Source: Candidatus Falkowbacteria bacterium RIFOXYA2_FULL_47_19 (GTDB lineage Bacteria; Patescibacteriota; Patescibacteriia; Patescibacteriales; UBA12075). Taken from it: a stretch of DNA of 64,000 bases. Of the stretch, positions 6,415 to 39,802 are shown piece after piece. The stretch spans positions 40,813 through 104,812 of the forward strand of contig MFGB01000020.1 in NCBI GenBank assembly GCA_001780275.1, written 5' to 3'. Positions within the stretch are counted from its first letter, which is position 1, and every line of letters starts with the position of its first letter. The notes beneath the pieces are model-generated. The model searched no databases. It saw nothing but the letters and a program-made list of their open reading frames with translations, and had not been told where the DNA came from. Both the position numbers and the translations under genes were made by a program.

Positions 6415-6423
6415 CAAACAAAA

Positions 6424-17740: not shown

Positions 17741-18283
17741 ATGAAAAAAAATCGTAACAAAGCCAGTCTCGCTGATTTAGAAAAAAGCATCGTGGCTATC
17801 GCCGATTGGCCCGAACCGGGCGTCACTTTCCGGGATATAACCCCGCTCCTCGAAGATCCGGAACTATTCCGCGCCACGATCGACCGCCTGGCCGCGGCCT
17901 GCGCCGATAAACGAATCGACAAGATCGTGGGCTTAGACGCCCGCGGTTTCATTTTCGCCTCCACCCTGGCCTATAAGCTCGGTGCCGGCCTGGTGCTCGC
18001 GCGCAAGAAGGGGAAACTCCCCCGCGAAACCTGCGGCCGCGGCTACGGCCTTGAATACGGCAAAGCCGTCCTCGAAATCCATAAGGATTCGATCAAAGAG
18101 GGCGAAAAGATCCTGATCGTCGATGACGTGCTGGCCACCGGCGGTACTATGGCTGCCGCGTCCGGAATAGTCGAAGAGCTTAAGGGCGATATCGTCGGAA
18201 TCCTCTGTCTGATCGAATTGCCGGCCTTAAACGGCCGGAAAAAGCTCGAAGCTTACGAGGTTGAATCCTTGTTCGAATTCTGA
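17741..18283 (+). CDS. apt: Adenine phosphoribosyltransferase
   Basis: ILIVDDVLATGGTMAA PRPP-binding motif and FRDITPLL, with typical Apt length. Confidence 0.92.
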   Translation: MKKNRNKASLADLEKSIVAIADWPEPGVTFRDITPLLEDPELFRATIDRLAAACADKRIDKIVGLDARGFIFASTLAYKLGAGLVLARKKGKLPRETCGRGYGLEYGKAVLEIHKDSIKEGEKILIVDDVLATGGTMAAASGIVEELKGDIVGILCLIELPALNGRKKLEAYEVESLFEF

Positions 18284-18301
18284 TAACGAAAGGAGGATGG
18301 C

Positions 18302-18592
18302 ATGAAAGTACTTAAAAAGGGCGAACCCAAAGAATGGTCTGTTAAGGTAAAATGCACCGGATTCGGAAATAACCGATACGGCTGCGGAGCCGAACTAGAA
18401 GTCGTTAAAAAGGATATCTATCTGACCTACTCTGAACATTACTGGGGAGAAACCGACATTTTCTATACGATCACTTGCCCCGAATGCGGAAAAGAAACGG
18501 ATATTCCGAATTCCAAAATCCCGTATTATCTCAAGGGCGTTTTTCCCTCTAAGGCGGCCTGGCAGAAGGCCGCGAAAGGAGAATTATCATGA
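18302..18592 (+). CDS. Small zinc-ribbon-like protein (paralog 1)
   Basis: MKVLKKG...CTGFGN..YGCGAEL.V...D.Y.T...CPECGKETDI, with SD aaaggagga upstream. Confidence 0.7.
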   Translation: MKVLKKGEPKEWSVKVKCTGFGNNRYGCGAELEVVKKDIYLTYSEHYWGETDIFYTITCPECGKETDIPNSKIPYYLKGVFPSKAAWQKAAKGELS

Positions 18593-18837
18593 AAATAATA
18601 AAGAAGGGGCGGGAACAGAAGGGCTGGTCAAAGGAATACGCCTGCACCGGCAAGGGAAATGGCGGCGGCGGATGCGGAGCCGTGCTCCTGGTTTCGGAAA
18701 ATGATCTCTATATGACTTCGCGCTCCGACTATTCGGGCGACACCGAGTATTTCGTGACCTTCAAATGCCCCTGCTGCGGCGTCGAAACCGATATCGAGGG
18801 CGTGCCGAGCCGGATCTGGTCCAAGCTTGATCTCTAG
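18589..18837 (+). CDS. Small zinc-ribbon-like protein (paralog 2)
   Basis: MKIIKKG...CTGKGNGGGGCGAVL.V...D.Y.T...CPCCGVETDI. The ATGA overlap with paralog 1 implies translational coupling. Confidence 0.7.
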   Translation: MKIIKKGREQKGWSKEYACTGKGNGGGGCGAVLLVSENDLYMTSRSDYSGDTEYFVTFKCPCCGVETDIEGVPSRIWSKLDL

Positions 18838-18852
18838 CGAAGGAGATAATAC

Positions 18853-19263
18853 ATGATACTGACCGTTGATGCCGCGATTATTGTCGGGGGGCGTTCGCTC
18901 CTTCTTCTGAGGCGGAGTAAATACCCGTTCGCCGGGAAGCTCGTTTTTCCCGGCGGACACGCGGAGGATAAAGACGGGAACACGCGAACGGCCGCGAGCC
19001 GCGAACTTTTCGAAGAAACCGGGATAGAGATCCCGCCGGAGAGATGGGGGCTTCTAACCGTTCTGGACGGACGGGGCCGCGATCCCCGCTACGGCTTCTC
19101 CGTTTCCGTGGTATACCGGGCGGATATCGACGATCCGCTGATCCTCGGTAAGATCAGGCCGTCGGACGAAGCTTCGGAGATACTGCTCGTGCCGATCGAC
19201 GAATTGCGGGAAGAAGACCTCGGCTTCGATCACTTTGATGCGATAAAAAAAATCAAAAAGTAA
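18853..19263 (+). CDS. NUDIX hydrolase
   Basis: Nudix box GGHAEDKDGNTRTAASRELFEETGI. Confidence 0.85.
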   Translation: MILTVDAAIIVGGRSLLLLRRSKYPFAGKLVFPGGHAEDKDGNTRTAASRELFEETGIEIPPERWGLLTVLDGRGRDPRYGFSVSVVYRADIDDPLILGKIRPSDEASEILLVPIDELREEDLGFDHFDAIKKIKK

Positions 19264-19463
19264 AAAACAAGCGGAATCTAAAAAAATTCCGCTTTTTTAT
19301 TGACCAAAACCCTCCTAAAGCCGGTTTTTTACTGGCGCGGGACGGCCTGATCTTTCATATATTTTCTTTTGCGCTTCTTTGGCGGATACTGAATTGACAA
19401 CATTAAAAAAATATGTTAGCATTATAAATTACCGAACCAGCCGACAAATAAAGGAAAAACGCC

Positions 19464-20372
19464 ATGAGCGCTCTTTTAAAATGGATGAGACCGATAACGG
19501 ATTATCTGAAATACGATAATAATTACTGGACCAGAGAGCGGGTAAAAGCTCTGGGAAAAAGATGCTTGATTTACTTCCTGCTGTTGTTTATCGTTTTTGT
19601 TTATTACGCCGTTCTAACGGGGCTATCCCCCAGCCAGGCCGCCCTCTCCGCTTATCGGAATATCAAACCGGGAATCACGGCTATGAGCCGGGATTTTCCC
19701 GCGCGCTTGCACGCTTATGCCGGCTGGTATCTCAGAAGCAAAAGCTTGCCGGACGAAAAAAAGCTTAGGGAGTATTTTGATGATCCGGAGCTAAAAAGAA
19801 ATATCCGGTCGCTGATCGGTCGTGACAAACTTGAAAAATATTCCGAGCTGGGCGGAGCGGTAATGCTCCGGGAAAGAAGCGGAAAGAAATATTTTTATTT
19901 TCATGTGATTGAAAGCGAAAACCTGGCCTTAAGCCGGAAGATAAGAGACAGTATGGGCGACAGGGAAGAGCTCGTGGTGATCATAGATGCCAACATCGAG
20001 GAATTCAAAGATCTTTATGGCAGCGAAGAATTATTCAAGAAAGTATACGGGCACATAAAGAACGGCACCGCGCACAAAGGAAAAAAGGATTACTTTCTAT
20101 ATGACGCCATAGATCTTTATCTGAGTATATCGGACTCAAGGTATAATTTAACTTCGGACGAAATTATAACGGAAGTGTTCTATCCCTTCGGTCCGGACGG
20201 TTTTTTTCTCGGCACCTTCCATATTCATGATATAGGCGGTCCGCCCAGCGACAACGATTTTCTCCACACGGATAAACACCCGGAGTTTGTTATTTCCAGC
20301 ACCTCTTCCGGTTTTATGGTCTATGTATTGTCGCAGGGGGTTATAATCCATGAAATCGATAAAAAATATTAA
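19464..20372 (+). CDS. Membrane-anchored protein with a JAB/MPN-like metal motif near the C-terminus
   Basis: One N-terminal TM. GTFHIHDIGGPPSDNDF resembles the JAMM motif H-x-H-x7-S-x2-D but has 6 rather than 7 intervening residues. Confidence 0.45.
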   Translation: MSALLKWMRPITDYLKYDNNYWTRERVKALGKRCLIYFLLLFIVFVYYAVLTGLSPSQAALSAYRNIKPGITAMSRDFPARLHAYAGWYLRSKSLPDEKKLREYFDDPELKRNIRSLIGRDKLEKYSELGGAVMLRERSGKKYFYFHVIESENLALSRKIRDSMGDREELVVIIDANIEEFKDLYGSEELFKKVYGHIKNGTAHKGKKDYFLYDAIDLYLSISDSRYNLTSDEIITEVFYPFGPDGFFLGTFHIHDIGGPPSDNDFLHTDKHPEFVISSTSSGFMVYVLSQGVIIHEIDKKY

Positions 20373-20505
20373 TATGCGGCTATTTTCATAGCCGTTTTTA
20401 AATTTATATTTTTACTTTTCGCCTTGACTTATTTTAGCAAGCATGTTAATATCTTTACAGATAATAGTCGTTAGGCTATTATTTTTTATACTGAAAAGCA
20501 GAATT

Positions 20506-20579
20506 GGAGCGGTAGCTCAGTTGGTTAGAGCGCTGCCCTGTCACGGCAGAGGTCGCGGGTTCGAGCCCCGTCCGCTCCG
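20506..20579 (+). tRNA. tRNA-Asp (anticodon GTC), CCA not encoded
   Basis: Acceptor ggagcgg/ccgctcc, anticodon arm ctgcc-ctgtcac-ggcag, T arm gcggg-ttcgagc-cccgt. Confidence 0.9.
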
Positions 20580-20584
20580 CAAAA
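20560..20584 (+). repeat. Direct repeat, left copy (3' end of tRNA-Asp; att-like)
   Basis: ttcgagccccgtccgctccgcaaaa is identical to 27420-27444. Confidence 0.8.
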
Positions 20585-20796
20585 CAAGAAATCCCGATAC
20601 TTCGGGATTTTTTGTTTTGTGGAACGGATGTACGCAAGAACCCGTTTGATTATAGAATAATGGCAGGATAAATTACTTACACATCGAATAAGAATTTTAA
20701 ATCCCACCCTCCGTATCCTTTGATCCTGCCCCGCTTGCCCCGCAGGTGAGCGCAGCGAGCTGTGCGGGGTCCGCTCCGCCAGGCGTATTTAATCAT

Positions 20797-21048
20797 ATGC
20801 AGTATGTCGTATACATTTTGCAAAGCAAAAAAGACTTAAGCTATTATATCGGGCACACTGATAATCCGGAAAGGAGAATTGAGGAGCATAATCGCGGTAA
20901 AGATAAATATACAAAAAGTAAAATTCCTTGGACCTTGGTTCGCAAGGAATTTTTTGATACCAGGGGCGAGGCCATGACGAGGGAAAATCAAATAAAAAGA
21001 AAAAAGAGTAGAAAATACATAGATTGGCTGGTTGGCTCTAAAAGTTAG
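20797..21048 (+). CDS. Small GIY-YIG nuclease-superfamily protein
   Basis: MQYVVYILQSKKDLSYYIGHTDNPERRIEEHN. The start is taken at the internal ATG of track ORF 20746..21048, because the upstream part runs through a GC hairpin. Confidence 0.75.
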   Translation: MQYVVYILQSKKDLSYYIGHTDNPERRIEEHNRGKDKYTKSKIPWTLVRKEFFDTRGEAMTRENQIKRKKSRKYIDWLVGSKS

Positions 21049-21085
21049 AGCGTCCCGACGGCCGTCGGGAAGGTCGCGGGTTTTT
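21033..21085 (+). pseudogene. tRNA-Asp-like fragment with the anticodon arm replaced by a 7-bp GC hairpin
   Basis: ggctc....gttagagcg / tcccgac-ggcc-gtcggga / aggtcgcgggtt aligns with the D arm, variable region and T-stem 5' side of tRNA-Asp. No acceptor stem is present. Confidence 0.4.
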
Positions 21086-21240
21086 ACACCGTCGTATGAC
21101 GGGGCTTTTCTTTTTCAAGAATGAATAAATATTGAATCTATGTTTTTTTCCGGCGCCCTCGGGGTTGACGAACCGGTCTTTTCGCGCTAAGATCCTTTCA
21201 GCAGAAGCTATTATAAAACTCAAAGCCAGGAGGCGGCAGA

Positions 21241-21678
21241 ATGAATACTGTATTTAATGATCATGAATACGGGCCCAGCGTTTATTTTTTTATTTTTACG
21301 GTTTACCTCCCGGTGTTCATCGGGTTACCATTTACTTTGTGCACCGCATCATCGCCCCTTTTTATCGCAGCGGCAAAATGGCTGTTTATCAGCCTCTTCT
21401 GTTTGACGCTCTTTGTCATCGCCGTTATTAATCTTTTGATCAGATATTCTTTTCTTAAGCACCGTTCTTTCCTGCAGGAATACCGGGTGCTGGAAAAACG
21501 GATAAGCCCGGTCAACCTGAAATCGCGTTTTGTTTTTGAACAAAAAATGAAATTTCTGGAGATCGTCACGGTCTGGAAAAAAACCGGCGAAACTTTTGAC
21601 CGTGCGGCCGCCGTTCTCTGGCAAAAAGAATTCAAGGCCCGATTCTACAAACTGGAATACTTTGTTCCGCATTATTAA
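21241..21678 (+). CDS. Hypothetical membrane protein
   Basis: Strong SD ccaggaggc, two or three TM segments, and a terminator at about 21693-21718. Confidence 0.55.
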   Translation: MNTVFNDHEYGPSVYFFIFTVYLPVFIGLPFTLCTASSPLFIAAAKWLFISLFCLTLFVIAVINLLIRYSFLKHRSFLQEYRVLEKRISPVNLKSRFVFEQKMKFLEIVTVWKKTGETFDRAAAVLWQKEFKARFYKLEYFVPHY

Positions 21679-22012
21679 TAAAAAACACAAAACGGTTTCC
21701 CAAAAACCGTTTTTTTTATTCCCCCTTGAATTAAAAAACCGATCAAGCGTTTGATCGGACGGCGGGAGTCAAATGCTCGTCTCTATCCATAAATAGGAAT
21801 AGAAGACAGACAATCTTCTTCGGGTTGTATTTGTGAATCTAGTTGGTCAACCATAACACGTTATATATTTATTAAGATTACAACAATATCTTTACTTGTT
21901 GATTTCTCTGTGGTAAATTAATAATGCCTTAAAAATAGTAAAATATGGATTTACCAAAAATTCCAACAGACAATTTATACAAATTTTAGCATTATCTGGT
22001 TTAATTTTTATA

Positions 22013-22375
22013 TTGCTTACTTTCTTGCTCGGCGGATATTACAATTATTATATAACTAAAGAGGTTCTCCTCGTTAAAGAAGAGACTACACGCGCGCTGG
22101 AAATGAATAGTGATAGCAATCATTCAAGTACAACCCCCCGTTTATACATAAGCAAAGAAATTGCGGATAAAATAACCGATCTTCAAAATAGAACTATCGC
22201 CTTAAAAGCCAGCATAGATACCATATTATTACTTAAGCCATTCATTTTTGGCGCGATGATTGTTAGTACGGTTATGGCATTTTTAGGTTTTTATTTATGG
22301 TATATAAAATTACAAAAACATAAAGACGAGATTATAAAATTAGAAGCGGAAAAATTAAGGTCTAAAATACAATAG
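22013..22375 (+). CDS. Hypothetical small membrane protein (start uncertain, possible frameshift with the ATG at 21945)
   Basis: The TTG start falls inside a predicted TM helix. An ATG at 21945 with 14 codons lies in another frame just upstream. Very AT-rich. Confidence 0.35.
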   Translation: MLTFLLGGYYNYYITKEVLLVKEETTRALEMNSDSNHSSTTPRLYISKEIADKITDLQNRTIALKASIDTILLLKPFIFGAMIVSTVMAFLGFYLWYIKLQKHKDEIIKLEAEKLRSKIQ

Positions 22376-22376
22376 T

Positions 22377-23171
22377 ATGTTAGAAGAATTTCAAAAATCA
22401 ATTAAGGCTGTCTTGTATGACAGACTGTCAAGCCCATTAGCAGGAGCTTTTATATTATCATGGTTCGTTTGGAACTGGGGATTGATTTATTACATCTTGA
22501 CCGGAGATGAAACGAGATACACAATTGAAAGAATTGAATACATAAAAGAAAATTTTTTATCCGAAAAATATATTTTGTTTTTCCCCTTGCTTTCTGTTAT
22601 TTTTTTAGTCTTCCTTTACCCATTTGCGGCAAATTTAGTATATAGGGTAATGTTAATGTTTAATAAACAGAAAAGAGACATCAAAATTAAAATTGAAAAT
22701 GATCAATGCCTTACTTTTAGGGAATCGGTTGAAATAAAAGAAACTTTCAGAAAACAGGAAGAGGTTTTTAAAAAATTCAACCAAGACAAAGACGAAAAAA
22801 TAAACATACTAAAAAGGGAAAATGATCTATTAAAAAATAAAATCAAAAAAATAGAGAATGACAATAAAAGAAAAGAATTATCTCCAGAGGAAAAAGCAAA
22901 AATTGACAAAATTTTAATTCATAACCTCGGAACCAAAGACGATGAATTTAAAAAAATAATAGAATCTAAATATAATAGACATTTTCTATCAATGGTAAAA
23001 TATATTAATCAGGGCTGGGGGTTTGGCGAAGATATAGACAATAACGCAGTAGGATTTTTTATTGCAAACGATATTATTGAGCAAACAAATAGGGCAAGTA
23101 TTTATAAATTAACCACCCGGGGTAAAGAATATTTAAAATATTATTACGATAATATTGAAACAAAAAACTAA
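22377..23171 (+). CDS. Hypothetical membrane protein with a central coiled coil
   Basis: TM segments at the N-terminus and a KE-rich heptad-like region (KINILKRENDLLKNKIKKIENDNKRKE). Abuts the upstream ORF with a 1-nt gap. Confidence 0.55.
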   Translation: MLEEFQKSIKAVLYDRLSSPLAGAFILSWFVWNWGLIYYILTGDETRYTIERIEYIKENFLSEKYILFFPLLSVIFLVFLYPFAANLVYRVMLMFNKQKRDIKIKIENDQCLTFRESVEIKETFRKQEEVFKKFNQDKDEKINILKRENDLLKNKIKKIENDNKRKELSPEEKAKIDKILIHNLGTKDDEFKKIIESKYNRHFLSMVKYINQGWGFGEDIDNNAVGFFIANDIIEQTNRASIYKLTTRGKEYLKYYYDNIETKN

Positions 23172-23205
23172 AAAACACCCCACCATAACCCGGCGGGGTG
23201 TTTTA
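23171..23205 (+). repeat. CACCCC-type palindromic element
   Basis: aaaaaacaccccaccataacccggcggggtgtttt immediately after the stop of 22377..23171. Confidence 0.6.
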
Positions 23206-23214
23206 TTACTATGG

Positions 23215-23940
23215 CTAATTAATTATGCAAAAATTTTTATACTTTAAAAACAATGCGCTAAGGTTGTTATATATTTTTTCTGAATTTTCTAAAATTTCCT
23301 TATTTCTATTTACAATCATTTGCGAAATCCAAGCCTTATTATTATCTGGTGTCATATTAAAAGATAAATCTAGTTGTTGTACAATATTTATCGCATTATT
23401 TACGGAATCCATAGACTCCATTACGTTGACAACCTCAATGGCAGAGGAACCTAAATATAAATATATATTATTTAAATTTTTATAATAAGGGTCAGTTACA
23501 TAGCCGGTCATTATAAATCTATTTTTTTCAAATCCGGTTAAAGTTTGCACAGTATTGGTTGCCTTTTTCAGATTAATAAAATTGGAATAAGTTAAAACGC
23601 AGTAAAAACTATTCTTTGCGTCCAGTTCATTTTTTTGTATTTCTATATAATGATTATTAATGTTCTGTATTTCAATAGAGTTTTGAAAAATAAAAAATAT
23701 TAATCCGAGAATGATTGTAATAACGGCAAGAAATTCACCCGATTTAATTTTATTTATTTTTATTTTATTTCTAAATAATAAGAATATACATATTACCGGC
23801 AACAAAAAATAGTAATTAGAAAGAATTACCGCTTTATATAAATTTTTAAATTTTAAAATTACATACAGTGCAATCAATACAAAAAGAATATTGAAAAAAA
23901 TATTCAATATTTTATGTAAAAGATTTTTTTTATTATTCAT
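23215..23940 (-). CDS. Hypothetical membrane protein
   Basis: 241-aa AT-rich ORF with 3-4 N-terminal TM segments. Confidence 0.5.
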   Translation of the reverse strand: MNNKKNLLHKILNIFFNILFVLIALYVILKFKNLYKAVILSNYYFLLPVICIFLLFRNKIKINKIKSGEFLAVITIILGLIFFIFQNSIEIQNINNHYIEIQKNELDAKNSFYCVLTYSNFINLKKATNTVQTLTGFEKNRFIMTGYVTDPYYKNLNNIYLYLGSSAIEVVNVMESMDSVNNAINIVQQLDLSFNMTPDNNKAWISQMIVNRNKEILENSEKIYNNLSALFLKYKNFCIIN

Positions 23941-24004
23941 AACGCTGTAGTTAGATACGTTTATATATTACCATTCGTTTTTTTAATTTACAAACTTTTT
24001 AATC

Positions 24005-24038
24005 AAAAACACCCCGCCATTAAGGCGGGGTGTTTTTT
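24005..24038 (+). repeat. CACCCCGCC palindromic element
   Basis: aaaaacaccccgcc-attaa-ggcggggtgtttttt, located between divergent genes and therefore not acting as a terminator for either. Confidence 0.6.
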
Positions 24039-24043
24039 GTTTA

Positions 24044-24117
24044 CCTCCCCCCCCTCCCTACCCCCCCCTCCAGCTGGGCGGGCGGGCAAGTCTGGGGAGG
24101 GCGACGGCGGGGGGTTT
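24044..24117. repeat. G/C-tract repeat
   Basis: cctcccccccctccctacccccccctccagctgggcgggcgggcaagtctggggagggcgacggcgggggg. Confidence 0.5.
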
Positions 24118-24283
24118 TTTATTGAATTATAGTATTTAAAATTTTATTTTTCTTAAGGAAAATTTTATATTTTTTTTATCTTTTCTTCATGTCGTTTTTG
24201 TTATAATAAAATTGAGCGTTTTTTATAAAACAAAGGTCGGGCTCTGTTAAAAATTTTAATCAACTAAATTTTCTAAAAATTAT

Positions 24284-25156
24284 ATGCATAAAATTAAACA
24301 ACATAAATTATTATTAATGCTATCCCTTGGATTAGTGGCATTAATTGCCTCTTTTTTCTTCGCGTCATATATAAACGCTGATTTAAATTCGGGATTAGTG
24401 GCTCATTGGAAGTTAAATAATTCAATGACGGATTCATCTGGCAATGAAAATACGCTTACCAACGACGGAACTGAAAGCACAACCGGTCTCTACGAAGCCG
24501 ATGATACTGCCTATAAATTTAATGGAATTAATGATGAATCATTAATTGCTGCGGATAGTAGTTCTTTAGATATTACCGGTGATATTAGTATTTCTGGTTG
24601 GTTAAAAATTGATAAACCGTTATCATATACAGAATGGCAAATCGCCCTAGTTTCTAAATGGAGTGGCGCTACGAATAACAGGTCTTATTTGTTGTATGCC
24701 TCCAATGATAGTGAAAACTCGTTTAATGATATGCTTATATTTGGCATATCGTCGGATGGAACGGGCGAGGGCAGTGGTCAGGAGCTTTATTTTTCTAATA
24801 GCACAACTAATTTTGCTACCGGAACTTGGCATCATTTTGCTGTAACGTGGAATGCGTCAGAATCTAGAGCTGAATTTTACATGAACGGAAAGAACTTGGG
24901 GGGTGATACCGGATCTAAAACGCAAATTTATAATGGAAACGCAAGTTTGAAAATTGGATATTCCGGTGATTATAACGGAGACTATAGTGTAGACGAGGTT
25001 CGTTTATACAATAAAGTTTTAACCGTCAATGAAATCAAAGCATTAAGCATTAACCCCGATTATAATAACGATGGAACGGTTGATGATGACGATATTTACG
25101 ACCAGGCTAAAATACATGCCGACTGGTTAGAAAATGTTTGGGGGACCGAAAAATAA
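24284..25156 (+). CDS. Secreted LamG / concanavalin-A-like lectin-domain protein with a C-terminal Ca-binding (dockerin / EF-hand-like) motif
   Basis: Signal/TM segment, LVAHWKLNNSMTDSSGNENTLTN...W.H.AVTW...YMNG typical of Laminin_G_3, and a C-terminal DYNNDGTVDDDD. Confidence 0.7.
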   Translation: MHKIKQHKLLLMLSLGLVALIASFFFASYINADLNSGLVAHWKLNNSMTDSSGNENTLTNDGTESTTGLYEADDTAYKFNGINDESLIAADSSSLDITGDISISGWLKIDKPLSYTEWQIALVSKWSGATNNRSYLLYASNDSENSFNDMLIFGISSDGTGEGSGQELYFSNSTTNFATGTWHHFAVTWNASESRAEFYMNGKNLGGDTGSKTQIYNGNASLKIGYSGDYNGDYSVDEVRLYNKVLTVNEIKALSINPDYNNDGTVDDDDIYDQAKIHADWLENVWGTEK

Positions 25157-25174
25157 ATTTTTATTTTAGACTCT

Positions 25175-25214
25175 AAAAACCACCCCGCCACTCAAATCCG
25201 GCGGGGTGTTTTTG
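25175..25214 (+). repeat. CACCCCGCC palindromic element
   Basis: aaaaaccaccccgcc-actcaaatcc-ggcggggtgttttt after the LamG gene. Confidence 0.6.
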
Positions 25215-25385
25215 TTTACTTCCCAATCAGTCTAGGGGATAATAATATACTTTTTATTTGTTTAATAATAGCAGTATTTATTATTTCTTTAGAAAAATTT
25301 TATAAAAATTTTATATTTTCTACAGTTTTTCTTTATATTTTTTTTATTTTTTCTTCATATTTTTTGCTAACCATAAACAAAAAAT

Positions 25386-25414
25386 TTGACAATATTTTTT
25401 TTATTATATAAAAT
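25386..25414 (+). promoter_or_regulatory. Sigma70-like promoter
   Basis: TTGACA, 17-nt spacer, TAAAAT. Confidence 0.5.
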
Positions 25415-25510
25415 GGCAACATCGTCTGCCAACCAGTAAACAAAAAGGAGGTGATTATAATCTGGTCTGGTGGATTTTTTTGTTCATTCCCAATAAAAAA
25501 GGAGAAAACG

Positions 25511-26266
25511 ATGAAAAAAAATGTATTACTCGTAACTCTTGTTATTTTGTTCTGTTTTATTTTTGTGACCAACGCTCTCGCCGTTGATGTCGTTGTGACG
25601 CAGAAATTTTACGCCGGCTCCGGTGACGGACATATGTATGCCTATAGCTCAAGCTGGGACGCTGCTCATGATGCAAGCGCCGCTTATCAACTTTGGTATA
25701 CAGCAACAAGCATTGGAGTATTTTCAACAAAAAATATATATGGTCAATTTGCTCCCTACCGTGCATTTTTACCGTTTGATACCTCGTCAATTCCCAATGA
25801 CGCAGAAATAGCCTCGGCTGAATTACATCTATACATACTTAATGCTCCGAATGACTGCAATGATGGATACGACTGGATTACGGTCGTAGAAACTTTTCAG
25901 GCCAGTACGAGCAGTCTTAGTAATGACGACTTTGACCTATGCGGTGACGCGATTAATAACCCAACAGAGGGAATTGATTCAGGAGAAAGAAAAGACATTA
26001 CCAATACTCCTACAAACCAATATTCCCACTTCTCTCTAAATAATACGGGTAAGAGCTGGATTAATGTTTCAGGGTATACAAAACTCGGTTTACGGGAAGG
26101 GCACGATGCTATTGACAGCACACCCAGTCTGCCGTCACCCGGAGATAACGGTATTGCGTTTTATAGTTCAGAGGGGAGTAACCCTCCTTATTTATTAATT
26201 ACCTACGTATGCGATTCGTGCGACATTCCTGACAGCGAAGATGTTGTATCCGTCTCTCTTTACTAA
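25511..26266 (+). CDS. Secreted hypothetical protein (possible DNRLRE-like carbohydrate-binding-type domain)
   Basis: Internal ATG preceded by aaaaaggagaaaacg. Signal peptide ends ...VTNALA. FLPFDTSSIPNDAEIASAELHLY and LGLREGHD resemble the DNRLRE-domain pattern, but this is a weak call. Confidence 0.6.
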   Translation: MKKNVLLVTLVILFCFIFVTNALAVDVVVTQKFYAGSGDGHMYAYSSSWDAAHDASAAYQLWYTATSIGVFSTKNIYGQFAPYRAFLPFDTSSIPNDAEIASAELHLYILNAPNDCNDGYDWITVVETFQASTSSLSNDDFDLCGDAINNPTEGIDSGERKDITNTPTNQYSHFSLNNTGKSWINVSGYTKLGLREGHDAIDSTPSLPSPGDNGIAFYSSEGSNPPYLLITYVCDSCDIPDSEDVVSVSLY

Positions 26267-26325
26267 TTATTAAAATCGTCTATAAAAGTAAAAGCGGGAC
26301 CGCACTCCTGCTTTTTTCATATAAT

Positions 26326-26358
26326 AACACCCCACCATTCAAACCTGGGGTGTTTTTT
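26326..26358 (+). repeat. CACCCC-type palindromic element
   Basis: aacacccca-ccattcaaacc-tggggtgtttttt, following the gene's own hairpin terminator at 26291-26316. Confidence 0.6.
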
Positions 26359-26361
26359 ATT

Positions 26362-26500
26362 TTACCCGCCAGCCGCCGCCCCAATCCGCCAGCTGGCGGA
26401 GAGGAGGGGGTAACGACGCAAAACCCCTCTCCAGAATTGGAGAGGGGTGCCCCGCCCTTCGCGAAGGGCGGGGCGGGGTGAGGGAAGTTTGGGGAGGGCA
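26362..26500. repeat. G/C-tract palindromic repeat cluster
   Basis: Contains ccagctggcggagaggaggggg, cccctctcc-agaat-tggagagggg, ccccgccc-ttcgcgaa-gggcgggg and ggggtgaggg. Confidence 0.55.
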
Positions 26501-26538
26501 TTTGACCCGATGGAGGTATTTTTTGTTTTGCTTTCCCG

Positions 26539-26567
26539 TTGACAAAGGCCGCGGTTCGTGCTAAGGT
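26539..26567 (+). promoter_or_regulatory. Sigma70-like promoter
   Basis: TTGACA, 17-nt spacer, TAAGGT. Confidence 0.4.
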
Positions 26568-26639
26568 TTTTTGACCGGCCGCCGGGCAGGCGCCGGCAAG
26601 GAAAAGCGGCGGGACCGCTAAACACGAAGGAGGAGCAGC

Positions 26640-27176
26640 ATGTCAAAAAAAAGAAGTTTTCCAAAAGTGGTTTTTGACCACGAAGCGCGTCATCCCGATT
26701 ATAATATTTTTTACGGGATGTACTTTGACACCGAAGAAGAGGATATGAGGATCGTAAGTCTCCTCAAAAAACGGCTGGCCAGGAACAGCGAACTGGCCGC
26801 CTGGATCGAGCTTATAAGGGTTGAGTACCTGTCAACGAAAGAAAAGGAAAAACCGTGCACCTGTTTCAGTATCGTTTTAGCCAAGCAGGTATCAGGAGCG
26901 GCCGGCGTAGGCGAATTTAATTTTACTATTGCCTGGGACAGAGATTCTAAAACGGTTCTTTTCACGAGACGCAAATATCCGTCCGAGGAAAATAGCGGTC
27001 GTATTGATATCGTTAATCCGATACAACTAAAAAACGAAGGCGCGGATGAGATCGTTGACGCGATACTATACGGCATCCGGGCATCCCTGGATAAAATCCG
27101 CCTTGATATTCAGAATATCATAATGAGCATACCCTGCCGCATCAAGATCAGATCTTTTGAAGAAGTAAACAGATGA
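26640..27176 (+). CDS. Hypothetical protein
   Basis: Strong SD gaaggagga. 178 aa, no family recognised. Confidence 0.55.
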   Translation: MSKKRSFPKVVFDHEARHPDYNIFYGMYFDTEEEDMRIVSLLKKRLARNSELAAWIELIRVEYLSTKEKEKPCTCFSIVLAKQVSGAAGVGEFNFTIAWDRDSKTVLFTRRKYPSEENSGRIDIVNPIQLKNEGADEIVDAILYGIRASLDKIRLDIQNIIMSIPCRIKIRSFEEVNR

Positions 27177-27193
27177 AGAAGTAAACAGATCAT

Positions 27194-27236
27194 AAAAAAA
27201 CAGGCACCCTGCTTAAATCCGGCAGGGTGTTTTTAT
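27194..27236 (+). repeat. CACCC-type palindromic element
   Basis: aaaaaaacaggcaccctgc-ttaaatcc-ggcagggtgttttt. Confidence 0.55.
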
Positions 27237-27419
27237 TTTGCCTCGTCTCTTTACCGCCCGATCGACCACCGGAAAAATCCGGTAACCGTATAGTGACGGA
27301 AAATCGGAAAAAGCTGGGAAAATCGTTAAAATTTGTTAAGACTTGTTAGGGCTTGATTTTAACTAATACTGCGTTAAAAGCCCGTGTTTATTGGGTTTTC
27401 TAAAAACCCATTTATAATT

Positions 27420-27444
27420 TTCGAGCCCCGTCCGCTCCGCAAAA
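27420..27444 (+). repeat. Direct repeat, right copy (duplicate of the tRNA-Asp 3' end; att-like)
   Basis: 25/25 identity to 20560-20584, followed by a hairpin terminator at 27449-27478. Confidence 0.8.
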
Positions 27445-27603
27445 GAGAAAAGCGGACATTTTTCATGTCCGCTTTTTGGGAGTTAGTTCATATCCCGGTT
27501 TTTTACTATTCCTTGACGAAATTTAAAAAACATGCTATTATACTGCGATACTGGTAATAAATCTATTTTTGCTCTTAAAAACATATAGCAAAAGGAGATA
27601 ACA

Positions 27604-27840
27604 ATGAAATTATCGAACATCAACCGCGGTAATATTGAAGCCCAACTAAAAGAAACCGATCCCGAAAAACTGCATGAAAAGGCCACTGACTATTTTAAAT
27701 GCATTATGCAAATTCCCGAAAATGTAGATGAGCGCGGTGCGGCCACGATGTTTCTTTCCCTGGCCGCGTTTTTCCAGGCGCGGGCCGCCTACTACGCCGC
27801 CATGGCCGCAAAGCCGAAATTTGGTCGCCAAGACTGCTAA
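27604..27840 (+). CDS. Hypothetical small protein
   Basis: SD aaaaggaga upstream. 78 aa. Confidence 0.45.
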   Translation: MKLSNINRGNIEAQLKETDPEKLHEKATDYFKCIMQIPENVDERGAATMFLSLAAFFQARAAYYAAMAAKPKFGRQDC

Positions 27841-27938
27841 GGGTTCGATTCATCAAACCAACGCCCCACCCGTCAACGTGCGGGAGCGCCGACGTGAATG
27901 TTTTACAACCCCGTTCTTAAAAAAGGAGGAAATTAGGT

Positions 27939-28430
27939 ATGCGCGTGAATCTTAAAACGATCCTGGTCTTCGCTTTGCTGCTCGCCGCTTTTTCTTTACC
28001 GGCCGAGGCCGGGGAACTTGCCGCTAAAGAGGGCCAATATCTCGGCTGGGGAATTATTACGAAAACGGATCCCGGTTTTGCATCCGTTACATACCACTGG
28101 AAAACTTATCCGGATTATCCCGATAACGAAAATCACGTATTCTATCCCGGCGATCTTATCGCGCAGCAGAAAATAAACTGCTGCGATAGCGGAGCCATAA
28201 TTTATTCGTCCCTGTGCGCCGGCAAAGTACATCTCCTCGTAAGATTCAACGGATATAGAACGGCTCATCAGATTACCGAGTCCGTCTTGGATCCGGGCCA
28301 GGAAACGATCATCGGCTCCGTAGTTGATTCAGGCGATGCGGCCATTATTATCAAACTTTTAAGCATCGGGGCGAACGGCAAAGCGTCATTCGCTATATCG
28401 CAAATCACGTTACGGCAATTACGGAGGTAA
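27939..28430 (+). CDS. Secreted hypothetical protein
   Basis: SD aaaaaggagga upstream. Signal peptide ends ...SLPAEA. Confidence 0.6.
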   Translation: MRVNLKTILVFALLLAAFSLPAEAGELAAKEGQYLGWGIITKTDPGFASVTYHWKTYPDYPDNENHVFYPGDLIAQQKINCCDSGAIIYSSLCAGKVHLLVRFNGYRTAHQITESVLDPGQETIIGSVVDSGDAAIIIKLLSIGANGKASFAISQITLRQLRR

Positions 28431-28434
28431 AATA

Positions 28435-28638
28435 TTGATCACGATATTCCCCGGCCGCGCGAGCGCCAAAAAAACCAAACGGATAGCCAAGCCGACTTAC
28501 TGGGATATCCGGTTGAAGGAAACGATACTGGATGAAATATCTTCCCTTCCCGGCGAGAAACCGGTTCGCGCGCGGACCGGAACGCGCCCGAGCGGAGATC
28601 TTATGAGAACCCGACTCATCGGACGGATCTGTTCTTAA
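28435..28638 (+). CDS. Possible small basic protein (TTG start)
   Basis: GGAGG 8 nt upstream of the TTG, 4 nt after the upstream stop. A terminator lies at about 28665-28695. Confidence 0.35.
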   Translation: MITIFPGRASAKKTKRIAKPTYWDIRLKETILDEISSLPGEKPVRARTGTRPSGDLMRTRLIGRICS

Positions 28639-28907
28639 ATATTAAATAATTCTTTCCCTTAAACAAATAACCGTTGGCATAACCAACGGTTTTTTATATT
28701 CATTTTTCGTTTTTAAAGCGATCGTATACCCTTATAGTCCGGCCGGCATCGATCACGCCGATCTTCGGATCAACGGTTTTGCGCTAATCCCGGATTTTTT
28801 AATCCATTATTTACTTTAAATTGTTTATACTGTTTATATATGATTTTAATTATCTCGCGCGAGAGCCGGAAAAATTTGACAAATCGACTCAGCCTGTTAA
28901 AATTTAT

Positions 28908-29948
28908 ATGAAAATAGCACAAGTAGCGCCCATAATCGAACGCATTCCCCCGAAAAAATACGGCGGCATAGAAAGGGTCGTTTACGCCCTGACCGAAGGA
29001 CTCGTAAGGCGCGGCCATGACGTTACCCTGTTTGCCAGCGGCGACTCGGTTACCGCCGCTAAACTGTCGTCGGTTTATCCGCAAAGCCTCCGCGAGACGA
29101 GGGTAAGCGATCTTTACGGATTGAACGTCCTTTCCCTCCTTAATATCGGGGCCGCGTACGACCGTCAGGATGAGTTCGATATAATACACGAACATAACGG
29201 CTATACCGCCCTGCCGACGGCGCAGATCGCCCGCAAGCCGGTGATCATGACGATGCACGGCCCGTTCACGCCGGAGGTCGCGAGGGTGTTTAAAATGCTT
29301 AATAAACCGTTTTTGGTTACCATTTCCCGGGCTCAGGCGGAAAACGTCCCCGGCATAAACCTTTTAGGAACTATCTATCACGGACTTGATATGGAAAACT
29401 ATCCTTTTTCCGGGGAGCACGAAGGCTATTTGCTTTTCGTGGGGCGGATATCGCTCGAAAAAGGAACGCACCTCGCGATCCAAACCGCCATCTACCTGAA
29501 CCTGCCCCTCGTGATCGCGGCCAAGCTTGAAGAGACGGACATGTCCTATTTTAAGCAGTATGTCGGTCCCCATCTGTCCGAAAGGATAAGATGGGTGGGG
29601 GAGGTGGAAGAAGAAGAGCGTAACCGCCTCATGAGCAAGGCCCTGTGTTTTCTCCATCCCGTTACTTGGAGAGAACCGTTCGGCCTTACCCTGATCGAGG
29701 CTATGGCCTGCGGATGCCCGGTTGTGGCGATGAACCATGGGTCGATCCCGGAGATCGTCAGGGACAACGAAACCGGATTCGTCGTATCAAGCCTCCTCGG
29801 GATGATCGAAGCGGTTAAAAATATCGAAAAAATTGACCGCGCGCGCTGCCGGGAGTACGCGCTTAAGAATTTCAATACCGATAAAATGACCCGAGCGTAT
29901 GAAGATTTATATTTAAAAGCCATACAAGCCGCTTCCGACAAGGGCTAA
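28908..29948 (+). CDS. Glycosyltransferase family 4 (GT-B)
   Basis: Starts MKIAQVAPIIERIPPKKYGGIERVV, with the EX7E region EPFGLTLIEAMACGCPVVA. The internal ATG of the track ORF is used. Confidence 0.85.
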   Translation: MKIAQVAPIIERIPPKKYGGIERVVYALTEGLVRRGHDVTLFASGDSVTAAKLSSVYPQSLRETRVSDLYGLNVLSLLNIGAAYDRQDEFDIIHEHNGYTALPTAQIARKPVIMTMHGPFTPEVARVFKMLNKPFLVTISRAQAENVPGINLLGTIYHGLDMENYPFSGEHEGYLLFVGRISLEKGTHLAIQTAIYLNLPLVIAAKLEETDMSYFKQYVGPHLSERIRWVGEVEEEERNRLMSKALCFLHPVTWREPFGLTLIEAMACGCPVVAMNHGSIPEIVRDNETGFVVSSLLGMIEAVKNIEKIDRARCREYALKNFNTDKMTRAYEDLYLKAIQAASDKG

Positions 29949-29975
29949 ACGGCATTTGGAACAAGACGAAACAAC

Positions 29976-31286
29976 ATGACCGATAAAACGAACAAACCGG
30001 ATTATCTTGAGTTAAAGGAGCTGGCCCTTAAAACCTTAGGCGAGCTTGAAACCGATTACGGCATTCTCGCCTCCGGACGGAACGAACTTTTCGGCTGCCT
30101 TTTCGGGCGTGATTCGCTTATTACCGCCCTAAAACTGCTTCAGGCTTACCGCTATGAAAAAAATCCCTATTATCTCGCTTTAACGAAAAAGATCATAGCT
30201 AACCTGGCGGCGCTCCAGGGGAAAAACGATAATATCGAAAGCGGCGAACAACCGGGCAAGATAATCCACGAATACCGGATAGACAACCACGAACGCCTGA
30301 CGGCCCGGGCGGTCAAACCCTGGTATATCTACAGCGACGGCACTATGCGGAATTACGACAGCCTGGACGCGACGCCCTTGTTCCTTATCGCCGCTTACCG
30401 TTATTGGCAATACAGCGGCGACAACGAATTTATCCAAAACCTGCTCGCGCCGATCAAAGCGGCTTTGCTCTGGATCGACGAATACGGCGACACGGATAAC
30501 GACAACCTCATCGATTACCGGCTTGATCCGGGCCGTAATCACGGCGGTCTTATTTGCCAAAACTGGATGGACAGCACGGAATCGCTTTTTCACGACGACG
30601 GCACGCCGCCCGTTTTTCCGGTCGCGCCCGCGGAAGCGCAAGGTTATGCCTATATGTCCTTAAGGCTTTGGGCGAGATTTTTCCGCGCTCGGGACGGCGA
30701 GTTCTCCGTCCGGCTGACCCGGAGCGCCGATCGCCTTAAAGCAAGTTTTATCGAACGCTTTATCGTAAACCGTAACAATGAAACGGCTTTTGCCAGCAAC
30801 GTCGACAGTACCGGGCCGATGATAACGGCCAGGTCGAATATCGGCCACCTGCTCTGGTCGTGTCTTAACAAGACCGATGACGGCGGAACCGACTGCATAG
30901 TGCCCGACGCCCACATTCCGGCATTGGTAAAACGCATTTTGTCACCCGATCTTTACGAGCCTAAGGCCGGTATCCGTACTTTAAGCCGGCTGTCCGGCAA
31001 CTTTGACCCCCGGGGTTATCATAACGGCTCGATCTGGCCGCACGATAATAGCCTGATCGCCGAAGGCCTGGATAATCTTTCTTATCACGAAGAAGCGCGG
31101 CGCTTAAGAAGAGCGGTACTGGATTCTCTTTATTATTTTAAAACCCCGGTGGAATTGTACGCTTTCGACAATAACCGCCATCAGGAATATGTTTCCCGCC
31201 AGGGCCAATCGGCCTGCCGCCAGCAAGCCTGGAGCGCGGCCGCCATGCTTTCCGACGCTTTAAAGGAAATAAATCGGATCGATTGA
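29976..31286 (+). CDS. Amylo-alpha-1,6-glucosidase / glycogen-debranching-enzyme-like (six-hairpin glycosidase)
   Basis: GRDSLITALKLL, QNWMDS and YHNGSIWPHDN motifs typical of the GDE_C family. Confidence 0.75.
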   Translation: MTDKTNKPDYLELKELALKTLGELETDYGILASGRNELFGCLFGRDSLITALKLLQAYRYEKNPYYLALTKKIIANLAALQGKNDNIESGEQPGKIIHEYRIDNHERLTARAVKPWYIYSDGTMRNYDSLDATPLFLIAAYRYWQYSGDNEFIQNLLAPIKAALLWIDEYGDTDNDNLIDYRLDPGRNHGGLICQNWMDSTESLFHDDGTPPVFPVAPAEAQGYAYMSLRLWARFFRARDGEFSVRLTRSADRLKASFIERFIVNRNNETAFASNVDSTGPMITARSNIGHLLWSCLNKTDDGGTDCIVPDAHIPALVKRILSPDLYEPKAGIRTLSRLSGNFDPRGYHNGSIWPHDNSLIAEGLDNLSYHEEARRLRRAVLDSLYYFKTPVELYAFDNNRHQEYVSRQGQSACRQQAWSAAAMLSDALKEINRID

Positions 31287-34135: not shown

Positions 34136-34215
34136 CCGGACGTGGTGGAATATTTGAGCACGCCCCGCCCTGGGCGGGGTGGGGGCAACCTCGTGAAGGT
34201 TTTAAGCCCGAGGCG
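34136..34215 (+). pseudogene. tRNA-Leu(GAG)-like fragment with the anticodon arm replaced by a GC hairpin
   Basis: ccggacgtggtggaat... and ...tcgtgaaggtt match the 5' and variable/T regions of the adjacent tRNA-Leu. The centre is ccccgcc-ctg-ggcgggg, and there is no 3' acceptor. Confidence 0.4.
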
Positions 34216-34289
34216 GATCAGCCGCGGGCTGACAAGTCTTTAGACGTTTAAAGCAGCGATATTTTTTAAAAATTTATTTTAAATCATTA

Positions 34290-34463: not shown

Positions 34464-34578
34464 CGATGAAATTTTTTGTTTACATTTTTTATAAAAAAAC
34501 AGAACAAACTCTCCGATAATATTGGCAAATACAGCAATAAGCGCCTTAAAAATTTATTATGCAAGGGGGTAAACACGA

Positions 34579-37750: not shown

Positions 37751-37868
37751 TTAAGTCCAGATAAACCTAGACAGCCAGCTCAACCACACTTCATATATGT
37801 TAGTTAGTATTTAAGTCTATAATATTCTGGACTGCATAACAAAACCCCCTCACGTGGGTCTTGAATTG

Positions 37869-38094
37869 AGGCCTGGACCGCCCCGCCATCCGGCGGGGTC
37901 TTCGCCCCGCTCTGCGGGACTCGAGATTTTTCAAACACTCGCCTATTTGCCAAAAGAATTCCTTTAATATTAGGCCTGGACCGCCCCGCCATCCGGCGGG
38001 GTCTTCGCCCCGCTCTGCGGGACTCGAGATTTTTCAAACACTCGCCTATTAGCCAGAAGAATTCCTTTAATCTGAGGCCTGGACCGGATTTGAA
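37869..38094. repeat. 103-bp tandem repeat (two full units plus a third start); each unit begins with the 3'-terminal 12-20 nt of tRNA-Cys
   Basis: Units start at 37869, 37972 and 38075. Units 1 and 2 differ at about 5 positions. Each contains the hairpins ccccgcc-atcc-ggcgggg and cccgc-tct-gcggg. The third copy shares 20 nt (aggcctggaccggatttgaa) with the tRNA. Confidence 0.8.
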
Positions 38095-38252
38095 GGGGCG
38101 GAAGCCCCAAACCAGCAAGTAAACATGTTAAGTTGCGGAGCAAATTGTTTTCAGAAAAAAAATCGCAATTGCCTTTTAAGATCCGGTCTAAACCGGTTCA
38201 AATCATGATCCCGGCCTCAATTCAAAAACCCCCTTACGGGGGTCTTGAATTG

Positions 38253-38324
38253 AGGCCTGGACCGGATTTGAACCGGTGCATGACAGTTTTGCAAACTGTT
38301 GCCTTACCGCTTGGCTACCAGGCC
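38253..38324 (-). tRNA. tRNA-Cys (anticodon GCA), CCA not encoded
   Basis: Minus strand reads ggcctgg-ta-gcc..ggc-a-acagt-ttgcaaa-actgt-catgc-accgg-ttcaaat-ccggt-ccaggcc-t. Confidence 0.9.
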
Positions 38325-39775: not shown

Positions 39776-39802
39776 AAGCATCCGATCTTTAACGGATGCT
39801 TT
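39776..39802. terminator. Bidirectional terminator
   Basis: aaagcatccg-atctttaa-cggatgcttt between convergent genes. Confidence 0.6.

Follow-up and report, generated by a model that had tools for sequence, protein, structure and literature searches.

What is the DNA that separates the 3' end of a tRNA-Asp gene from an exact second copy of that end, in an interval of 6.86 kb, and how did it get there? The question is raised by a 64,000-nt stretch of contig MFGB01000020.1 from Candidatus Falkowbacteria bacterium RIFOXYA2_FULL_47_19 (the window; positions refer to it unless another contig is named, and contigs and loci from elsewhere carry L numbers). A first-pass annotation had described the interval as a single genomic island of about 6.8 kb, bounded by the two repeats as its attL and attR attachment (att) sites. 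The reading that we favour, at about an even chance, is a composite one: an older module made up of a small GIY-YIG nuclease-family gene and pseudo-tRNA copies (20585-21094), followed by a block of ~6.3 kb with a horizontally acquired core, which entered at a second tRNA-Asp gene, here called tRNA2. The extra tRNA-Asp sequence found here most likely stems from the GIY-YIG/pseudo-tRNA module, the architecture of which recurs at other tRNA genes and is more unusual than the island itself.

The intact tRNA-Asp(GTC) gene (tRNA1), one of five tRNA genes in the window, is located on the plus strand at 20506-20579 according to the Rfam tRNA model (71.6 bits) and at 20506-20580 according to ARAGORN. 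It is preceded by a promoter-like site (TTGACT-17-TAATAT with a TG extension; 20424-20452, plus strand). The 25-mer TTCGAGCCCCGTCCGCTCCGCAAAA has exactly two copies in the whole window, at 20560-20584 and 27420-27444, both on the plus strand, so the direct repeat was correctly annotated. It takes in the T-loop, the 3' strands of both the T-stem and the acceptor stem, the discriminator and 5 trailer nucleotides, so that in the proximal copy CAAAA follows the 3' end of the tRNA; weaker similarity extends the repeat to 32 nt (29/32 identical). The annotation was also right in placing a separate hairpin terminator behind each copy. The first of these, TCCCGATACTTCGGGA with a T-run (20589-20610, plus strand), is a palindrome of the same type as the hairpins found within the pseudo-tRNAs, and the second is a hairpin with a T-run at 27448-27476 (plus strand). 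That the repeat arose by chance, or belongs to a dispersed family with no relation to tRNA (a case considered together with the original annotation), has next to no probability and can be counted as refuted: one of the only two copies lies within a tRNA gene, no such repeat is expected by chance (0 in 100 shuffles), no third copy exists in the window at up to 3 mismatches, and no point speaks in favour of this explanation.

The first 0.5 kb of the interval has a distinct anatomy. The GIY-YIG gene (20797-21048, plus strand; Pfam PF01541, E = 2.6e-17), already recognised in the first-pass annotation, encodes a stand-alone UPF0213/Slx1-like protein of 83 amino acids (aa), and is situated between the intact tRNA-Asp and two pseudo-copies of this tRNA, both disrupted by hairpins. 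The first of them, psiA (20740-20781, plus strand), is composed of a GC hairpin, the sequence TCCGCTCCG corresponding to the tRNA-Asp 3' acceptor strand, and CCA; judging from the 11-nt exact match at 20769-20779, it is a tRNA-Asp 3'-end remnant just upstream of the GIY-YIG gene. The second, psiB (21026-21094, plus strand), overlaps the end of the gene and corresponds to tRNA-Asp over the stretch between the 5' acceptor strand and the T-arm, with the hairpin TCCCGACGGCCGTCGGGA in place of the anticodon arm. Decay has affected the T-loop and the 3' strand of the T-stem in psiB, and has spared the variable loop and the T-stem 5' strand.

According to a profile built from 20 homologues, the best Protein Data Bank (PDB) matches of the GIY-YIG protein are the UPF0213 structures 1zg2 and 1ywl (E 8e-16 and 3e-13), and SLX1 is matched as well. 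Residues Y6, Y17, G19, R27, H31 and E63 are invariant in these homologues. The protein consists of the catalytic domain only, with neither a C-terminal extension nor a DNA-binding domain. Its homologues in the protein collection number 115, many of which come from contigs below 1 kb in length, and no member of the family was found in IMG/VR. tRNA genes that contain group I introns are known in Patescibacteria (PMC13011429). No match to the Rfam model Intron_gpI was obtained in regions 5600-6600 and 18000-30000 or at four GIY-YIG loci, so the pseudo-tRNAs are not intron-split tRNAs, and an intact tRNA adjoins the pseudo-copy in every case; a group I intron splitting the tRNA-Leu(TAA) gene of the window was rejected on the same ground.

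The age of the module can be judged from the sister species, represented by the metagenome-assembled genome (MAG) GCA_043801965.1 with ~90% DNA identity, in which two short contigs, 18 (L030) and 22 (L019), end inside the locus. L030 carries the same upstream genes, followed by the conserved promoter region (window 20396-20520 against L030 3546-3670, 84/100 identical) and by psiB (window 21045-21084 against L030 3669-3708, 39/40 identical). Since psiB is preserved to this degree, it predates the split of the two species. The homology ends at GCGGGTTT, inside the psiB T-loop. In the sister, an intact tRNA-Asp is found 25 nt past psiB (L030 3742-3816), and an AbiEi-like gene then continues to the contig end. 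Relative to psiB, this intact gene occupies the place of the 25-nt tRNA remnant of the window, and the distal repeat copy is therefore read as the 3' remnant of tRNA2. The 3' acceptor strand of the sister tRNA-Asp is CCGGTCC and not CCGCTCC, so that a G-G mismatch arises with the 5' strand of the same tRNA; the cause is either a hybrid 3' end brought in by an inserted element or an error in the MAG. Window positions 27393-27419 were considered as a homologue of the sister spacer that follows psiB and rejected, the alignment score being 19 against 15 +/- 2 (maximum 23) in shuffles.

On the other side of the interval, L019 starts with the C-terminal end of an IS30-family transposase, and homology to the window restarts directly after the transposase gene, at the promoter-like site of a 78-aa gene (27513-27541, plus strand), with L019 137-515 matching window 27513-27892. 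A scan of genome contigs with the downstream GDE_C protein yielded this one sister contig, ending in the IS30 gene short of the junction. None of the interval genes, including the GIY-YIG gene at the Asp locus, is present on the two sister contigs recovered. Moreover, a 163-aa gene just outside the distal repeat (27939-28430) is missing in the sister, where the 78-aa gene and the glycosyltransferase gene are conserved, so the variability of the locus extends past the distal repeat.

The borders of the ~6.3-kb block are at ~21,085/21,095 and 27,419, and both fall in T-arm sequence derived from tRNA-Asp (psiB, 21085-21095, on the left and the distal repeat, from 27420, on the right). Its compositionally foreign, AT-rich core (21,800-26,300), delimited by tetranucleotide composition, GC content and family matches, contains five genes: a 120-aa gene (22013-22375) abutting a 264-aa gene (22377-23171), a gene for a hydrophobic 241-aa putative membrane protein on the minus strand (23215-23940), a LamG-type protein gene (24284-25156; Laminin_G_3, E = 1.6e-18) and a DNRLRE-domain protein gene (25451-26266; NCBIfam, E = 4.8e-11). 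The core is flanked by two plus-strand orphans that match no family, a hydrophobic 145-aa putative membrane protein with host-like GC content (21241-21678) and a 178-aa protein adjoining the distal repeat (26640-27176). The secreted lectin-like proteins of the first-pass annotation are thus identified as LamG and DNRLRE proteins; its orphan membrane proteins are indeed orphan and hydrophobic, though their membrane nature is putative, from hydrophobicity. Such cargo (secreted LamG and DNRLRE proteins, hydrophobic orphans) is typical variable envelope equipment.

The composition of the block is uneven. Outside the interval the GC content is ~46%, while most 200-nt segments of 21.8-25.4 kb are at 17-35%, and over the entire core the values for such segments range from 0.17 to 0.44. 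In tetranucleotide composition, the distance from the remainder of the window peaks at z = 8.6, with values of 4.2-8.6 in the 2-kb segments covering 21-26 kb and above 2 in every 2-kb segment between 21 and 27 kb. The deviance is limited to 21.8-26.3 kb, with host-like edges at 20.6-21.7 and 26.3-27.4 kb. The strikingly AT-rich core of the first-pass annotation is confirmed, and the deviant composition expected of an island is found in this core and not in the interval as a whole. A family of bidirectional terminators, CACCCCGCC...GGCGGGGTG, has members at 23176, 24010, 25181 and 27205 and a variant at 26322 (overall span 23176-27229), and at no other site of the 64-kb window; as these terminators are common to the AT-rich core and the 178-aa gene, the two share an origin.

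The block might instead be native, that is, a fast-evolving surface-protein locus which is AT-rich for functional reasons, with the 25-mer as a relic of a local tandem tRNA duplication. Secreted and hydrophobic orphans are common in genomes of the Candidate Phyla Radiation (CPR), an identical copy of the interval is present in both strain backgrounds described below, and the only homologue of the 264-aa protein with a usable context is found amid housekeeping genes. This protein has four relatives, all on short contigs, around which no island or integrase context was seen, and its tblastn matches in phages are weak. However, the z value of 8.6 is far beyond anything in the rest of the 64 kb, other surface-protein genes included, the terminator family is private to the block, and the recovered sister contigs show different genes and none of those of the interval; we consider a native origin very unlikely.

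No recombinase for the block came to light in the sequences scanned. In Pfam, PHROGs, PADLOC and NCBIfam, the open reading frames (ORFs) of the interval have no hit to a family of integrases, transposases, excisionases or phage structural proteins, in agreement with the first-pass annotation, and no intergenic gap of the interval is long enough for an integrase pseudogene. There is no recombinase among the other sizeable window ORFs scanned (precomputed and fresh Pfam searches) and no integrase among the scanned ORFs of the window and of flanks up to 10 kb. The interval DNA has no match in phage and plasmid collections, and no known defence family was detected by PADLOC among the window cargo. 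The 178-aa protein is a near-orphan, with just 4 relatives among 1.84 billion representative proteins; a recombinase fold was considered for it and dropped, as its AlphaFold2 (AF2) model, with a mean predicted local distance difference test (pLDDT) value of 48.8, was too poor for a fold search and gave no basis for it.

From these data we infer the following order of events. The ancestral locus would have comprised the promoter, tRNA1, its trailer, psiA, the GIY-YIG gene, psiB, a spacer, tRNA2 and a terminator. The block may then have entered by recombination at the segment of tRNA2 from the T-loop to the 3' end, and the 5' part of tRNA2 would have been lost, perhaps together with the recombinase gene; alternatively, the recombinase could have acted in trans. 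The loss of tRNA2 would be tolerable because tRNA1 supplies the function. The distal 25-mer would be the surviving 3' end of tRNA2, and its exact identity to the proximal copy would stem from tRNA duplication, not from one attL/attR pair. Tyrosine integrases classically target the stretch between the T-loop and the 3' end of a tRNA, and the recombinase gene is usually located next to the tRNA. The enzyme is the step that we trust least: a tyrosine integrase is the default for T-loop junctions, and it is assumed here, not observed.

Thus, of the claim of a genomic island at tRNA-Asp, a variable, foreign insertion that carries no recognisable recombinase stands, and the single unit of ~6.8 kb probably does not. 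It is also improbable that the two repeats served one event as attL and attR, as the distal copy is better read as a tRNA2 remnant. The locus is a variable islet at a tRNA-Asp hot spot.

Other genomes show the same tRNA-Asp with different neighbours. A metagenome scan, in which the query was the exact 3' 42-mer of tRNA-Asp and not an empty-site junction, yielded 10 loci from other organisms and none from the population of the window. In two of them the tRNA 3' end recurs downstream, at 2.7 kb in L020 and at 2.9 kb in L022, with identity starting, as in the window, from the first T of TTCGAG. In L020 the islet is composed of an AAA_21 ATPase gene and a DUF4276 gene, and a DpnI gene follows past the second repeat; the L022 islet contains DpnI and AIPR genes, the DpnI gene being first. 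From this gene order, L020 looks like two islets in tandem, that is, accretion. L021 has three closely spaced units of a hairpin and a tRNA 3' end. At other loci, the genes directly 3' of tRNA-Asp encode R.Pab1 and a methylase, a TOTE AEP-helicase and a Fic protein, or JAB and E1-like proteins, so that the cargo at the tRNA-Asp of L020-L025 and L030 is made up of defence-type genes. The tRNA with its trailer (window 20504-20618, including the terminator region 20580-20618) is itself ~90% identical in the unrelated L020 and L023. That three islets with different cargo share one repeat boundary is in keeping with a tyrosine integrase.

The classical explanation, in which the whole 6.86 kb is one element with the 25-mers as attL and attR, either decayed or mobilised in trans by a tyrosine integrase in the manner of a cis-mobilizable element (CIME), draws on the same observations: an exact direct repeat that starts at the T-loop and ends 5 nt past the tRNA, integrase-less islets with repeats at the same tRNA position in L020 and L022 with apparent tandem accretion in the former, and the G-G mismatch of the sister tRNA-Asp, which is expected if its 3' end was supplied by an element. 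We nevertheless hold it to be unlikely, since the first 0.5 kb is a module of the type seen at other tRNAs, the psiB in it predates the species split, and foreign composition begins only at 21.8 kb. Moreover, an integrase is missing both from the scanned window ORFs and from the surroundings of 12 tRNA-Asp loci, the 25-mer has no match in IMG/VR, and no empty site is known from the population.

This last point rests on 37 contigs (JGI, ENA, NCBI and Logan), 14 with the upstream 302-aa protein and 23 with the downstream 163-aa protein, all of which belong to one Rifle population with 99.8-100% identity to the window. The flanking proteins assign the sequence to Candidatus Falkowbacteria bacterium RIFOXYB2_FULL_47_14 of the Rifle aquifer (GCA_001778165.1). 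Every contig that reaches into the interval carries the interval sequence at ~100% identity. Two strain backgrounds can be distinguished by 5-6 single-nucleotide polymorphisms (SNPs) in the upstream 302-aa gene, the interval sequence is common to both, and only two SNPs, at 24113 and 25182, lie inside it. Two contigs end at 20559 and 20580, and the other 13 of 15 contig ends are inside the AT-rich core; these breaks look like assembly or coverage effects and not like excision. No empty site was seen among the 37 contigs, and the block is fixed in the sampled Rifle population and probably immobile. The locus is variable with respect to the sister, whose recovered contigs carry other cargo and none of the interval genes, and not within the population, where the interval is conserved.

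The module at tRNA-Asp is not a solitary case, as a module of this kind or its remnant is present at all five window tRNAs. The second window GIY-YIG gene (6074-6325), the product of which is 34% identical to the one in the island, stops 6 nt before tRNA-Leu(TAA) (6332-6415). Ahead of the gene, the 5' half of this tRNA is repeated exactly over 38 nt (5961-5998), followed by two hairpins at the position of the anticodon loop, after which the sequence AAAATCTC resumes. Upstream of the real tRNA-Leu(GAG) there is a pseudo-tRNA-Leu(GAG) with two GC hairpins (34136-34230), the variable arm of which matches the tRNA of the sister species and not that of the window itself. Contigs L009, L012 and L014 have an extra 165-nt psi-tRNA-Leu(GAG) unit absent from the window, with the breakpoint exactly at the T-loop, and hence this array varies in copy number within the population.

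Directly 3' of the window tRNA-Val only a decayed start of a GIY-YIG ORF is left (ATGAAATTTTTTGTTTACATT...; region 34465-34560), while in the sister an intact 83-aa GIY-YIG gene begins at the tRNA-Val 3' end and is followed by psi-Val with two TCCCGACGCTTCGGGA hairpins (L019 6409-6820). For tRNA-Cys, located on the minus strand, an exact 22-nt copy of the 3' end starting from the T-loop is found at 38073-38094, with a GC hairpin before it; nearby are a two-unit array of 103 nt (37869-38074), the units of which end in hairpins and the acceptor 3' strand, and a copy of the tRNA-Cys trailer and terminator (37824-37880). No ORFs lie between these partial copies downstream of tRNA-Cys (37824-38324), and the region around them (36-39 kb) is also compositionally deviant, with z = 2.6-2.9.

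Among the GIY-YIG loci for which DNA was available, all eight have an intact tRNA accompanied by hairpin-substituted copies of the same tRNA. These loci are Asp and Leu(TAA) of the window, Val of the sister, L020 (Asp), L033 (Val), L034 (Ile), L037 (Ala) and L040 (Asn), and half of them (L033, L034, L037 and L040) were fetched by protein homology alone. The hairpins substitute the 5' strand of the anticodon stem, of the T-stem, or of both, and their consensus across distant genomes is (T/C)CCCGA(C)-loop-(G)TCGGG(A/G). The order of parts differs between loci. It is psi-Asp, GIY-YIG, intact tRNA-Asp in L020; psi-Val, GIY-YIG, psi-Val, intact tRNA-Val in L033; and tRNA-Asn, GIY-YIG, psi-Asn with two hairpins in L040. 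In L034 (880-3700; 776-kb contig Ga0212093_1000017) the module is within an rRNA operon, between the 16S rRNA gene and tRNA-Ile, and consists of psi-Ile, a GIY-YIG gene overlapping the intact tRNA-Ile and, behind this tRNA, psi-Ile 3' parts arrayed at intervals of ~95 nt. In L037 the intact tRNA-Ala(GGC) is followed by at least 5 tandem units of GIY-YIG and psi-Ala with a 356-nt period; this locus, together with L038, belongs to the 3.06-Mb contig ERZ21878204:ctg9566l (~1221-1225 kb), where an AbiEi_2 gene comes after the array, and it shows that the module amplifies into arrays outside CPR too.

These observations invite an explanation that dispenses with an integrase altogether: the GIY-YIG nuclease would cut or mark tRNA genes, repair, through homing or unequal recombination with a donor copy, would duplicate their segments, and DNA between the intact tRNA and its duplicated 3' fragment would be carried along. 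The gene is located beside the tRNA, where an integrase gene normally sits, and duplicated tRNA segments accompany it at 8/8 loci, with 3' halves often (in L034, L037 and L040) 100% identical to those of the tRNA. Array copy number varies in the population with breakpoints at the T-loop. The gene differs in occurrence between the sisters, being present in the window and absent in the sister at the Asp locus (where psiB is kept), and intact in the sister with only a decayed start in the window at the Val locus; presence and absence with pseudo-tRNA footprints left behind is the behaviour expected of a homing gene and fits its cycle of gain and decay. In addition, the SLX1 relatives recognised by the profile are established structure-specific nucleases, and SegB of phage T4, a GIY-YIG homing enzyme, acts in a tRNA gene cluster (PMC2330249). 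On the other hand, the 83-aa protein lacks a DNA-binding domain, its clade has no known cleavage activity, and earlier work suggested for the clade a link with RNA or tRNA modification and not with mobility (PMC1564403). The L022 islet has no GIY-YIG gene within ~1.3 kb upstream of its tRNA, and the distal 25-mer of the window lacks the variable loop, the T-stem 5' strand and the conserved hairpin of typical module pseudo-tRNAs. As an account of the entire interval, this explanation seems improbable.

A more general proposal, which we put forward tentatively as possible though rather doubtful, is that the small UPF0213/Slx1-like genes encode the nuclease of undescribed selfish tRNA-targeting modules, which also build or move the integrase-less islets bounded by tRNA fragments at CPR tRNA genes, the present one among them. 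Upon insertion, the target tRNA may be duplicated, one copy remaining intact and the other having the 5' strands of its anticodon and/or T stem swapped for a palindrome of roughly TCCCGA(C)-N4-(G)TCGGGA; such modules may be gained, form tandem arrays and decay. No description of small GIY-YIG genes with pseudo-tRNAs was found in the open-access full-text literature, and the association of UPF0213/Slx1-like GIY-YIG genes with a tRNA and its hairpin-substituted pseudo-copy is apparently undescribed.

Several observations weigh against the composite origin that we prefer. The existence of tRNA2 in the ancestor of the window is deduced from a single sister MAG on short contigs, the left junction of the block can be resolved only to 21085-21095, and the 145-aa and 178-aa genes at the margins of the block are host-like in GC content. 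An integrase is absent beside tRNA-Asp at each of the 12 loci examined, no excision junction was found in the contigs, and the right ends of the window, L020 and L022 islets share no common arm sequence. Moreover, the genome contains tRNA fragments starting at the T-loop with neither cargo nor integrase (tRNA-Cys at 38073-38094 and psi-Leu(GAG)), and therefore recombination among tRNA and pseudo-tRNA copies could have made the right junction unaided. For the same reason the repeat is no proof of integrase-mediated integration, and it is unsafe here to take a tRNA 3' end that has been duplicated for the scar of an integration.

Other features of the interval and the window may be mentioned. Approximately 100-150 nt upstream of the distal repeat, region 27265-27325 has four close GGAAAA(A) motifs (CCGGAAAAATCCGG, ACGGAAAATCGG, CGGAAAAAGCTGG and GGGAAAATCG), which could be putative protein-binding iterons or arm sites. 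Two GC-rich tracts of the block, 24040-24115 and a similar palindrome cluster at 26365-26500 (61% GC), contain poly-C/G runs and palindromes, each just past a terminator; they show no relation to the dispersed repeat at 5792-5940. The latter belongs to a GC-rich palindromic repeat of ~150 nt found at 5760-5940 and 51090-51260 (copies 84-87% identical), which holds CCTGCCTGCCGGCAGGCAGG and TTCCCGCGAAAGCGGGAA hairpins, and in the unrelated L020 the CCTGCCTGCCGGCAGGCAGG palindrome also occurs within the pseudo-tRNA-Asp that lies upstream of the GIY-YIG gene. Finally, a tandem array of ~9 paralogous genes of ~133 aa, with a period of 400-600 nt and 60-82% DNA identity, occupies 39800-44130 on the minus strand.

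By itself, the island adds another variable islet at a tRNA hot spot, with genes for envelope proteins whose function is unknown, from an uncultured member of the CPR. The wider consequence is that in these genomes a duplicated tRNA 3' end does not prove integration by an integrase, which affects automated callers of islands and prophages that use tRNA repeats. The module adds a recurrent association for a widespread nuclease family of unknown function, namely with tRNAs that have pseudo-copies beside them. If the module is mobile, it would give the UPF0213/Slx1-like family a function and provide an integrase-independent route to defence and variable islets at tRNA genes in organisms where classical mobile-element enzymes are few.

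Several known systems resemble parts of the locus. With SegB of phage T4 it shares a GIY-YIG gene among tRNA genes, present or absent between close relatives (PMC2330249). However, the SegB-type enzymes have DNA-binding domains and are of the I-TevI/UvrC lineage, whereas the protein studied here is a minimal 83-aa Slx1/UPF0213 domain; in addition, the duplicated, hairpin-substituted target tRNA is undescribed for seg genes. An identification as an I-TevI/Seg-type homing endonuclease was therefore rejected, given the different lineage and the lack of a C-terminal DNA-binding domain (NUMOD, zinc finger or HTH); the TIGR01453 model was matched, far below the cut-off, only by the Leu-linked GIY-YIG paralogue. 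By sequence and by its minimal domain, the protein belongs with UPF0213 and other prokaryotic Slx1-like proteins (1zg2, 1ywl). A 2006 survey of the GIY-YIG superfamily described such minimal prokaryotic Slx1-like domains with fusion or neighbourhood links only to COG4123 and TrmH-like methyltransferases, and reported neither a function nor an association with tRNA genes (PMC1564403).

As in the case of islands and prophages inserted by tyrosine integrases (P4/lambda-type att sites), foreign DNA lies by a tRNA, the distal repeat starts at the T-loop, and the sister has different cargo. Unlike there, no integrase is encoded in the element, among the scanned window ORFs or at the 11 other tRNA-Asp loci, the partner of the repeat is probably a separate duplicated tRNA, and neither an empty site nor excision is seen in the contigs. 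CIMEs are non-autonomous att-flanked elements that accrete in tandem, as described for Streptococcus in the literature on integrative and conjugative elements. The att-like flanks, the lack of recombination genes and the repeats of L020 and L022 at one T-loop position, with apparent tandem accretion in L020, are CIME-like, whereas the cargo and the host phylum differ and no partner element or integrase was found here. Hot spots of defence and other variable genes that are free of mobility genes occur by tRNA genes in the pan-genomes of E. coli and Pseudomonas. Bounding repeats derived from the tRNA are not stated for these hot spots, and the window cargo, unlike theirs, matches no defence family; still, the tRNA-Asp flank resembles them in its varied cargo (DpnI, AIPR, AAA_21 with DUF4276, R.Pab1, TOTE and AbiEi-like genes), gathered beside one and the same tRNA with no integrase.

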